DNA of 64,000 nt from Pristiophorus japonicus. Lineage: Eukaryota. The notes below the pieces were generated by a model. It had not been told where the DNA came from. It ran no database searches and was given only the letters and a program-made list of their open reading frames with translations. Positions 6,840-58,236 of this stretch are shown here, one piece after another; the stretch's first letter is position 1; each line of letters starts with the position of its first letter. A program made the translations under genes and the position numbers. The stretch is taken from the NCBI RefSeq assembly GCF_044704955.1, contig NC_091994.1:107260001-107324000 (forward strand), in the 5' to 3' direction.

Positions 6840-8726
6840 ATAAGGAGGGGCGAGGCCATACAGAGATTTGAAAATAAGGTTGAGAATTTTGAAATGGAGG
6901 CGTTGCTTCACCAGAAGCCAATGTAGGTCAGCGATAATGGGTGATGAGTGAGCGGGACTTGGTGCAAGTTAGGACACGGGTAGCCAAGTTTTGGATCACC
7001 TCTAGTTCATGTCGGGTAGAATGTGGGAGGCCAGCATGGATGAGGGCTTCAGCAAAGTTTGAGCTTGGGCAAGAGTGGAGACGGGCAATGTTACGGAGGT
7101 GGAAATAGGCGGTCTTAGTTAGTTATGCTGCGGATAGGTGGTTGAAAGCTCATTTTAGGGTCAAATGTAACACAAGATCAGCTATGATCTTATCGAGGGG
7201 CCAAATGGCCTACTCCTGCTCCTATTTCTGATGTTCTTATATAAGGTTGTGAACAGTCTGGTCCAGCCTCAGACAGAAGTAACTTATAAAACAAAAATCT
7301 ACTTACTGCAATGCAATTTTGAACGCCAAGCAAGAAATGGGATTTAAATATAATTGAATGACTCCAGGAGTCCAGAAATATTAAATTGGTCCAAATAGCT
7401 ATTGGCATGCATTGCCACATTGTGCTTTTGGTAATCACATTTTGCGGCATGTACCTTCTCTGACTATGCATGAAACGAATGTTGAGGATTTTTCCTTTTG
7501 AACTGTGAATAGCATCTCTGACACCAAAACTGAAATACTATAAAAGGAACCAACTGTACAAAGTGTTCATATGTTTCTGATCATTTATTTAATATATCAT
7601 TTTCAGCAATAGAATTTCTTTTTCCTTTCAACAATAATAACTTGTATTTATAAAGCGCCTTTAACATAGTAAAACGCCCCAAGTCGTTATCAAACAAAAT
7701 GTCCTCCCCAGTGGTGTTTTGTCAAGAGAATGGGACAATCCAATCAAAAACTCCAAGGTTGAAAACAACAAGAGCATTTTTCAGCTGGAGCCAAGGGGAA
7801 CCTTCCTGAATCGATTTCTTCCCTCCAGTCAAGCCTACCCTCAAAGAGAATGCCAAACACAAAATGGCAATCAAGACTGAGACAGTGCAGTGCTCTAGTT
7901 TTGGAACTATCAGACCTTACAAAATGAAAACAAAACAACGTAAATGACATAACCCAAGTTCCAATTCCGAAAACTAAGAGAATTCAGTCAGAGTTTAAAG
8001 CCCCAAACTCATCCATCAGTAAGTAAATATGGCAGCAAACTGCAATGCAGATCAATATAAAATTTTACTGATGTCCAGATCTTAGTGATTATATGCTTAT
8101 TTATTTGAATCAGATTTAAATGCCTGTGCCAAGGAGTGTTTATAGAAGTCTGATCCTTTCATTAATTTTAATGATCCACAAGGGTAGGAGAGTTTCCAGT
8201 GAATATTACTGCTCGCAGACCATCGTCTTTACTCTGGAAAATAACTAACAAAGCAGCCGGCTGTGCCGTCGAAAATAATCCAGACTGATTTTATCTTCAT
8301 CTCGCACAATCATGGCAGGGCAACTAAAATTAATCATCCTTACTTAAGTCAGTGTTACATATTTTACAAGCATTTTGTCATAGGATTGCCTGGAACAAAT
8401 CCTTAAAGCCTGTTAAATGACGCCACAATGAATGAAAGAAGTGTGCATTTATGTTGCACTCAAATATCCCAGAATCTACTTTAGCAAGAGGAAGTACAGC
8501 TGGTGGAGGAGGGCCTGGTGCAATATAAAAAAAGGAAAGAGAGTGAAGAATTTTTTAGAACTATTTTTTCATTAACTTAAATAGATTTTTTTCTTTGAAT
8601 TACTGCTCCAGCAAAATATGTTCTCTGTTGCCTTTATTGACAAATGATGCGAAGAAGAGGAAACAATGAGGGGTAAGGTAGAGGGTAAGGAAGGAAAGGA
8701 GGGAAGCAAGGGAAGGGAAGGGAGAC

Positions 8727-10573: not shown

Positions 10574-10804
10574 GTGGGGTGGATTGACCCATCCACCTCC
10601 ACGGAGGTGTGTGGGGGGCCTGACCCATCCACCTCCATGGCACGAACCTGGTATTGCAGTACTCCCAGGAACGGTGCAGTGGCTCTCGGCCTTTTGGCTA
10701 AGAGCATTGGCGCAGAGTGATCCTTGATGTGTGCAAGGTGACCTCTGGCGTTTGTGATTTGACAAAGAATTGGAAAGATTGGCTACGAATAAAAAAATTT
10801 TTTA
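10574..10804 (+). mobile_element. snRNA-derived SINE-like element type B, 5'-truncated
   Basis: U2 3' stem-loops, then the U2 5' end (CTCTCGGCCTTTTGGCTAAG), tail and A-tract. TSD AAAAACGGCCT at 10563-10573 and 10805-10815. Matches 57164-57486. Confidence 0.85.
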
Positions 10805-10809
10805 AAAAA

Positions 10810-10976
10810 CGGCCTTTTGGCTAAGATCAAGTGTAGTATCTGATCGTATCAGTTTAATATCCCCTATCTGGGGACCAAATATTAAATTGATTTTTGGAAC
10901 AGGGAGATGGAACAGAGGCTTGCTCCGTCCACTCCACGCATCGACCTGGTATTGCAGTGTTTCCAGGAACGGTGCA
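10810..10976 (+). pseudogene. RNU2: U2 snRNA-derived sequence (retroposed, non-functional)
   Basis: CGGCCTTTTGGCTAAGATCAAGTGTAGTATCTG...Sm site ATTTTTGG...CCTGGTATTGCAGT..CCAGGAACGGTGCA. Lacks the first ~9 nt and TGATACGT of stem IIa. Confidence 0.92.
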
Positions 10977-11072
10977 GCTTCCCCTCTCGGCCTTTTGGCT
11001 AAGATCAAGTGTAGTCGCGCAAAGTGATCTTTGGCGCTGGAGTTGATCTGACAAGAATGAACAAAAAAAAAA
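10810..11072 (+). mobile_element. snRNA-derived SINE-like element type A: near-full U2 + U2(6-37) + tail + poly(A)
   Basis: Direct match to U2 snRNA, followed by a second U2 5' piece and a tail homologous to the type B tail. Confidence 0.85.
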
Positions 11073-11762
11073 CACCGGCGTAGATCAGTTGAGTGAATTG
11101 GCCTGTTTCTGTATTGTAAATTCTATGTAACTGAGCAGAATAGCACAAATGCATTTAAAGGGAAGCTAGATAAGTACATGATGGAGAAAGGAATAAAAGG
11201 GCCTGTTGATAGGTTGAGATGAAGCAAGATGGGAGGAGGTTCATGTGGAGCATAAATACAGGCATAGACCTGTTGGGCTAAGTGGCCTGTTTCTCTACTG
11301 TAAATACTTGGGACCCAAAATTGGTCAATACATAAGGACTGCCCATTTCTTGGCGGTATGCCGGCAGTGCGTCATTTCAAACCGAAGAGGACAAAATTGG
11401 TTGATTTTTTTTCGGCGGTATGCCAGTGGTCTGCAGCAGGCGGTAGGTAACACAGCAGTTGATCCTGATCGACATTCTTTTCGATGGACGGTGCAGCACT
11501 GAATTGCGCATGCTCGTTTTTTTTTTCTTTCTTCCTTTTTCCACAGAAGCATTTTACCCGCGATTTCGGGGGGTCAGAGGTCACCTGCGCATGCGCAATG
11601 AGTTGCAGTCGAGGGGGAAAGTGAGAAGGGGCAGCAAGCTAGTCGCTGGTCAGTTACTTTAAAAACACATTGCAGAGTTTAAAAATATTCATAACAAATA
11701 ATAATTCTATACTTTGAACAGCAAGACATATTTTACAAAGCAAAAATCATAACATAAATATA

Positions 11763-56972: not shown

Positions 56973-58236
56973 ATCATCATCATAGGCAGTCTCTGAAAAT
57001 CGAGGAAGACTTGCTTCCACTCTAAAAGCGAGTTCTTAGCGACTGAACAGTCCAATACGGGAATTACAGTCTCTGTCACAGGTGGGACAGACAGTCGAAG
57101 GAAAGGGTGCGTGGGACTGGTTTGCTGCACGCACCTTCCGCTGCCTGTGCTTGCTTTCTGCATTTTTTTTTTAAATCGTAGCCAATCTTTCCAATTCTTT
57201 GTCAGATCACAAACGCCGGAGGTCACCCTGCGCTAATGCGCTTAGCCAAAAGGCCGAGAGCCCAAGCACCGTTCCTGGAAGTACTGCAATACCAGGTTCG
57301 TGCCATGGAGGTGGATGGGTCAGCAACCCCACACACCTCCGTGGAGGTGGATGGGTCAAGCCACCCCACCCATCTCCTATTTCCAAAAAGCATAGGAGAA
57401 CCACCTTCCTGATCCAGGGAGAACCACGTTGGGGTCATGGTTACTCCCCTGTCAGGTCAGTTACGCATGATCTTAGCCAAAAGGCATTGGCTTTCTGCAT
57501 GCTCTAGGCGATGAGACTCGAGGTGCTCAGCGCCCTACCGGATGCTCTTCCTCCACTTAGGGCGGTCTTTGGCCAGGGACTCCCAGGTGTTGGTGGGAAT
57601 GCTGCATTTTATCGAGGAGGCTTTGAGGGTGTCCTTGAAATGTTTCCTCAGCCCACCTTGGGCTCGCTTGCCATGTAGAAGTTCCAAGTAGAGCACTTGC
57701 TTTGGAAGTCTTGTGTCAGGCATGCGAATAATGTGGCCCGCCCAGCAGAGTTTGTCGAGTGTGGTCAGTATTTCAATGCTGGGGATGTTGGCTTGATCAA
57801 GGACGCCAACGTTGGTGCGTCTGTCCTCCCAGCGGATTTGCAGGATTTTGCGGAGATATTGTTGGTGGTATTTCTCCAGCGATTTGAGGTGTCCACTGTA
57901 TATGGTTCTCGTCTCTGAGCCATACACGAGGGCGGGCATCACTAAAGCCCTGTAGATCATGAACTTGGTGGTAGATTTGAGGGCCTCATCTTCGAACATT
58001 CTTTTCCTCAGGCAGCGTTGGCGCACTGGAGGCGGTGTTGAATCTCATTGTCGATGTCTGCCCTTGCTGATAATAAGCTCCCGAGATATGGAAAGTGGTT
58101 CACGCTGTCCAGGGCTGCACCGTGGATCTTGATGACTGGGAGGCAGTGCTGTGTTGCGGGGTCAGGTTGGTGGAGGACCTTTGTCTTACGGATGTTTAGT
58201 GTAAGGCCCATGCTTTCGTACGATGCAGTGAATATG
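56973..58236 (-). mobile_element. RTE LINE 3' fragment hosting a U1/U2 element
   Basis: HFPYLGS, WAGHIIRMPDTRLPKQ, (GAT)n tail. Confidence 0.92.
57164..57486 (-). mobile_element. snRNA-derived SINE-like element type B, U2-U1-U2-U2 mosaic
   Basis: TSD TTG(G)CTTTCTGCAT at 57151-57163 and 57487-57500, poly(A), and recognisable U1 and U2 segments. Confidence 0.88.

Follow-up and report, generated by a model that had tools for sequence, protein, structure and literature searches.

The window analyzed here, a 64,000-nucleotide stretch of the Pristiophorus japonicus genome (contig NC_091994.1, positions 107,260,001 to 107,324,000), carries on its minus strand an element that runs from 57485 to 57164, is flanked by copies of an 11-base duplication and is embedded in another abundant repeat. 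The interrupted repeat reads straight through at 24 other copies among the loci examined, where the target site is single, and a Pfam search of its fragments found no domain. Boundaries of the parts were set by alignment to the U1 and U2 genes of the same genome (Table 1). This alignment bears out the U2-U1-U2 mosaic, in both part order and coordinates, that an earlier note had read from the letters alone. The same note described the U2 branch-pairing segment as gone; U2 is cut after nt 35, with half of nt 33-38 lost and half retained. The alteration of the U1 5' arm that it reported is confirmed against host U1 (T6G and G12A).

Table 1. Parts of the minus-strand element and related copies in the window
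Positions	Strand	Feature	Remark
57490..57500	-	5' copy of the 11-bp target site duplication	single in 24 uninterrupted host-repeat copies
57462..57485	-	U2 nt 12-35 head with changes A30T and T32C, cut within the branch-pairing segment	compared with host U2 genes
57414..57461	-	U1 nt 3-51 with T6G, G12A and A49T; 5' arm altered, stem I kept, loop I (57427-57436) changed	compared with host U1 genes
57395..57414	-	second U1 piece, nt 28-47, 19/20 identical to host U1; predicted pairing with the altered U1 5' arm	
57376..57394	-	Sm-site region of U2; A before the U-run replaced, U-run itself retained	
57306..57375	-	doubled U2 stem-loop III	TRF repeat 57306-57377
57266..57303	-	U2 stem-loop IV; loop 57283-57291 kept, predicted open	
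57241..57260	-	second piece of the U2 5' end (stem-loop I), left over from a short ancestral element with a U2 head	
57176..57240	-	non-snRNA tail, 21-base deletion in the window copy	
57164..57175	-	A-rich 3' end	
57153..57163	-	3' copy of the target site duplication	
10574..10795	+	5'-truncated copy of the same (A) family, stacked ahead of the family B copy	
10802..11075	+	family B copy: near-complete U2, branch-pairing segment intact, second U2 5' piece, related tail	

The tail deletion of the window copy lies between two short direct repeats (minus strand, near 57225), and other family copies lack 10-20 bases close to the same position. A 901-base stretch around the element was searched with cmscan, which returned U2 at 31.4 bits (E = 2.4e-4; gathering score, 46) and U1 at 19 bits (E = 0.02; gathering score, 69.5), while matches to Prion_pknot and to miRNA families in Rfam were below thresholds and were discarded. 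By local alignment the U1 match scores 58, and none of 2,000 shuffles exceeded 31, which places it beyond chance; in cmscan, U1 and U2 both score under gathering. With sub-gathering Rfam scores and another repeat as its upstream flank, the element lacks the marks of a functional U1 or U2 gene.

A 25-base sequence spanning the U2/U1 junction occurs exactly 2,078 times in the 5.92-Gb genome (control, 0), and the changes to both splice-recognition segments, that of U2 and that of U1, are present in these copies; they belong to the family consensus, as the note had expected, and are not private to the window copy. Among 2,073 candidates from a DNA search, all 40 that were scored were near full length. 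Every junction is common to all of 30 aligned copies. The family element is 342 bases long and non-coding, and target duplications of at least 9 bases were found in 122 copies (median, 16 bases). The cut preference is loose (purine-pyrimidine / A-(A or T)) and also fits U2 nt 37/38 and the site of the window copy. The family shows the traits of SINEU elements, namely a U1/U2 head, common internal junctions, poly(A) with a target duplication, recurrent U1/U2 5' additions and sharing of targets with a Tx1 LINE, from which mobilization is inferred. That the window element is a copy of a SINEU-like retroposon (SINE) family is virtually certain. Its parts are pieces of host snRNAs, and chimeric retrocopies are known (PMC4494074), so a set of independent chimeric U1/U2 retro-pseudogenes or a functional variant snRNA gene was also considered. 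Identical multi-part junctions in 2,078 copies, together with the aligned copies and the subfamily structure, refute such pseudogenes, and a variant gene is contradicted by the sub-gathering scores and by the location inside another repeat with a target duplication; either is exceedingly unlikely.

Approximately 20 of 39 5'-truncated copies end directly 5' of the doubled stem-loop III (family position 110-128), as if reverse transcriptase stalls between two long hairpins. A second hot spot occupies a single antisense site within pol of a Gypsy-type LTR retrotransposon (L237:1545-2500; also L002, L007, L106, L207, L233, L240, L241, L247, L248, L273, L280, L317 and L318), at which 16 of the 147 SINE copies of position-picked loci are stacked, plus one LINE end. 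This parallels the preference of crocodilian Tx1 families for LTR elements.

A looser head pattern matched 2,551 heads genome-wide. The first 100 listed comprise 77 of subfamilies A3-A5, which have the U1 stem, 10 of A2 and 13 of A1, in which U2 nt 33-38 are intact; none carries a host-type U1 5' arm. Lengths of terminal A-runs and divergence were measured in 80 position-picked stretches plus 30 loci of a further subfamily, R, so that the loci are not all random. Median A-runs and divergence were 19.5 and 0.3% for R, 14.5 and 0.8% for A1, 11 and 1.4% for A2 (a class that took in a few R-headed copies whose tail differs), 10 and 0.3% for A3, 10 and 1.2% for A4, and 9 and 1.8% for A5, the subfamily of the window copy. 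A3 shows no more divergence than R, so the subfamilies cannot be ordered by divergence alone. The order in which copies are stacked into one another (R, A1, A2, A3/A4, A5, B) fits all 34 mixed SINE pairs at the loci examined. By these criteria R is the youngest subfamily, with the longest A-runs, and the combination of stack order, A-run length and divergence indicates that A5, the A form most similar to U1, is also the oldest, so that the U1 graft decayed later and A1 regained the branch-pairing segment. The opposite course, in which likeness to U1 was gained over time, was rejected, as stack order and tail length point the other way.

Family B consists of a nearly complete U2 that has lost 9 bases of stem-loop IIa, with U2 5-38 and a related tail after it, and nt 33-38 are intact in 86 of the 97 B-type heads listed. 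Its sequence runs past host U2 nt 191 into the 3' flank of type-1 U2 genes, the type with the commoner flank. In two of 30 B copies (L095 and L104), a freshly added U1 5' piece with an intact splice-site arm lies inside the target duplication. In family B the tail follows directly on U2 nt 38, which hints at an ancestor that was itself something inserted at that site. Regarding the origin of the tail, two likenesses to U6 exceed those of shuffles among 35 comparisons, a 12-base match in A3/A4 (p = 0.005) and a longer gapped match in R (0/200); they were taken as chance, because the likeness is missing from the older tails of A5 and B and can be explained by a local duplication and a single change. 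No match was found between the SINE tail and the 3' end of the LINE described below (shuffle p = 0.2-0.6). The end of the tail may bear an antisense likeness to U4.

The U2 arrays of this genome contain a full-length, 5.7-kb LINE with intact ORF1 and ORF2, for which Pfam identified endonuclease, reverse transcriptase (RT) and zf-RVT domains; the endonuclease is of the APE type and ORF1 is of the Tx1 type. Its RT is 39% identical to both a Takifugu RT (BAD04856.1), presumably a Keno, and a 149-kDa zebrafish TX1 protein, and the closest named pieces are from horn shark (65-81% local identity). An octamer-like word lies in the LINE 5' UTR just past the U2 head (L177, minus strand, near 7310). The poly(A) of the LINE abuts U2 nt 38/39, and its 5' end is a variant of U2 1-44. 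U2 nt 38/39 is given in PMC4640811 as the insertion site common to Keno and Utopia. The partner LINE resembles both in ending there and resembles Keno, of the Tx1 clade, in its APE-type endonuclease. It differs from Keno in its relaxed specificity, with most copies dispersed, in having inherited a variant form of U2 1-44 as its head, and in that SINEs appear to be driven by it; unlike Keno and Utopia, the window SINE encodes nothing. Since most 3' ends related to the LINE lie outside U2 genes and insertion is not specific to them, we use the label 'Keno-like'.

The SINE shares this target. Fifteen A-family 3' ends were found at the U2 nt 38 site, all within B-type heads, 8 of the 97 listed B heads are interrupted at nt 38, and five LINE-SINE pairs have a LINE end stacked directly ahead of a SINE. 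A Keno-like Tx1 LINE is thus very probably the partner of the family.

Two types of U2 gene are present (L061-L088 and L089-L090), with different flanks and few internal differences. Type-1 units form a tandem repeat of ~770 bases. Two flank types were likewise observed for U1 genes (L031-L060). A pattern joining the U2 upstream flank to the altered head, which is blind to A1 or B residents, gave 19 matches, of which 18 are subfamily R copies inside U2 gene units, 17 behind the type-1 flank and one behind the type-2 flank, and the remaining one is a dispersed A2 copy. In these residents, the SINE head replaces the 5' end of the U2 gene and is fused at +1, and poly(A) is followed by U2 nt 39-191. 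This downstream portion is present at 153/153 in 15 of the 18, at 145 in one, is cut by the end of the locus in another and follows an interrupted tail in the last. Upstream of the residents, the DNA shows no difference from intact genes across 324 and 400 bases. The residents may stem from few events spread by array homogenization.

The R tail occurs in 203 copies genome-wide, ~185 of which are near-identical dispersed copies. Among the first 30 dispersed copies listed, all are 98-100% identical, 26 start at U2 nt 1-12 and none has the upstream flank or downstream U2. Two of the 30 carry the allele of the majority array form (15 array copies) and 28 that of the minority form (3 array copies). 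No copy with the A5 head type of the window copy was found behind either U2 flank, and no A3-A5 resident was found in the assembly with the flank pattern. No recognizable proximal element like the -61 motif was found in the type-1 flank, behind which 17 of the 18 residents lie; it scores 2.6, compared with 20-23 in the host U1 and type-2 U2 flanks, the latter values being circular.

It is hypothesized that capture of U2 promoters is the source of SINE RNA, which we consider the likelier explanation. The LINE endonuclease would nick U2 at nt 38, reverse transcription would begin on the SINE A tail, and the U2 head of the SINE would join the homologous end of the gene. The captured gene promoter would then make SINE RNA from +1. 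Residents would turn over, leaving older subfamilies such as A5 as dispersed copies only. The U1 piece would be a one-time template-switch graft that later decayed, and the splice-arm changes would most likely be by-products of grafting and of refolding into a long head hairpin. Points that weigh against this model are the missing A3-A5 residents, the type-1 flank in which no recognizable proximal element was found, the possible spread of the residents from few events, the mismatch between the SINE tail and the LINE 3' end, and the absence of downstream U2 from the 30 dispersed R copies, since an ending of the RNA at the A tail is not explained by the model; the run of family B into the 3' flank of type-1 genes speaks for it. 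On the sequence evidence as a whole, the window element is one dispersed member of a young SINE family derived from U1 and U2, which a Keno-like Tx1 LINE probably copies and which is likely transcribed from host U2 promoters captured by insertion into U2 genes.

The same SINE and LINE partner could also operate with RNA made from chance flanking promoters, +1 starts arising when the template switches to U2 RNA during insertion, and the array copies being passengers. Such switching has a precedent in the U1 5' additions of 2 of 30 B copies, and head nt 1-28 are identical to U2, leaving their source indistinguishable; the flank pattern found no resident for A2-A5 heads, and the type-1 flank has no recognizable proximal element. 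We nevertheless find this course rather unlikely, as 30 A5 copies and 30 R copies have no 5' extensions in common, the youngest subfamily is the one resident in the arrays, and array alleles recur in dispersed copies.

A further possibility is that loss of the branch-pairing segment was due to its overlap with the site cut by the LINE; heads without the segment would not be displaceable from a captured promoter. Consistent with this, 8 of the 97 listed B heads, with an intact site, were hit at nt 38, stacks grow at the nt 38 site and the resident subfamily R lacks the segment. This explanation is improbable, given that A1 regained the segment and that insertion at nt 38 still occurs in the variant head of the LINE itself. 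The latter case is a Tx1 copy inserted at nt 38 of the U2-like head of another Tx1 copy (L186:6232).

The earlier note had suggested that the RNA may recruit snRNP proteins without disturbing splicing. Extended to the family, this proposal would have selection remove the splice-recognition arms and keep the protein loops, so that the RNA mimics an snRNP harmlessly and becomes more stable or reaches the LINE machinery. Splice recognition does appear weakened as claimed, with predicted pairing to the 5' splice site at -9.6 versus -15.3 kcal/mol and to the branch site at -1.1 versus -3.2 kcal/mol. The proposal gains from the fixation of the changes in more than 2,000 copies, from the absence of a host U1 5' arm among the 100 heads listed, and from U2 loop IV, which persists in sequence as stated, is predicted to be open and is kept in all A subfamilies. 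The purported U1-70K-like loop did not hold up. U1-70K requires loop I as a loop; on its native stem this loop is altered, and pairing is predicted for its second copy (unpaired probability <=0.03 over 5 of 10 bases). Sm assembly requires an A preceding the U-run, and this A is lost in A5-A2. Selective retention of protein-binding sites is not supported, given the alterations of U1 loop I and of the Sm-site A and the changed loop IV of B2. Substitutions occur throughout the element and are densest in loop I and stem-loop III, and the U1 parts decay in later subfamilies. Nor is a need for loss of splice recognition in amplification supported: B, B2 and the young A1 keep U2 nt 33-38 yet were amplified, and the U1 arm is intact in 2 of 30 B copies.

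Predicted folding bears on the same question. The whole element has a predicted fold with z = -4.4, and a strong head hairpin is predicted in all A subfamilies (z = -1.9 to -5.5). In A1, the regained branch-pairing segment is predicted to be fully paired (z = -5.0), and B lacks part of stem-loop IIa, which U2 function requires; both would suit an RNA made harmless to splicing. Aligned copies keep the head hairpin 95.5% paired without two-sided covariation (0/16 pairs), which counts against the proposal. Hairpin stability was also tried as the cause of the splice-arm changes and was rejected, as restoring the host bases costs -0.2 to 1.4 kcal/mol versus a median of 1.1 for any change; the change in the duplicated loop alone matters to the hairpin (6.0 kcal/mol). 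Selection for an snRNP mimic thus has a low probability, though not a nil one, because every family is crippled as a splicing RNA somehow. A weak form survives, in that nt 33-38 are altered or predicted to be locked in a hairpin in every A subfamily and B lacks 9 bases of stem-loop IIa.

SINEU-1, -2 and -3 were described in crocodilians, with none found outside them (Kojima 2015, PMC4494074); the passages on SINEU in PMC4758252, PMC5381603 and PMC5786205 cite it for crocodilians only, or without a host. The present family resembles SINEU in that its heads derive from U1/U2, 5' additions recur, parts are duplicated, and copies have poly(A), target duplications and internal T-runs and are stacked in tandem; a further resemblance is the inferred Tx1 partner with common targets and a U2 head. 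As for SINEU-1, no LINE with a matching tail was found (PMC4494074). It differs in its non-crocodilian lineage, in being very young, in having copies resident at +1 of host U2 genes, and in a partner LINE that still hits U2 genes, whereas the crocodilian partner targets Mariner-N4. An origin independent of crocodilian SINEU-1/2/3 is likely, because the U2 part of family B matches the U2 of the host genome. A search of the openly accessible literature turned up neither a SINEU from sharks nor any SINE residing in U2 genes, although the family may already be catalogued in Repbase, Dfam or subscription journals, and a metagenome scan for the U2 end-to-start junction gave no matches.

R2 elements, which insert in 28S rDNA, have no promoter of their own and use the transcription of their target gene. 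In the proposed model, the SINE would likewise work through the transcription of its target gene. Its target differs from that of R2 in being a Pol II snRNA gene, and the SINE is non-autonomous and widely dispersed. As it starts at the +1 of the gene, no 5' cleavage would be needed, unlike for R2.

The transcription of SINEU was left as an open question, with flanking promoters suggested (PMC4494074). Likely source loci, an intact likely partner LINE and a dated subfamily series are all found in one genome here, which makes this question directly testable. We propose, as an idea with about even prospects, that a class of promoter-less SINEs survives by swapping into the 5' ends of U2 genes by means of a U2-targeting LINE, with subfamilies competing for slots and the current resident being the one now spreading. 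If true, the family would be an independent second origin of SINEU, its host would bear the cost of U2 gene units turned into SINE factories, and the question of how promoter-less, snRNA-headed elements get transcribed would be answered.
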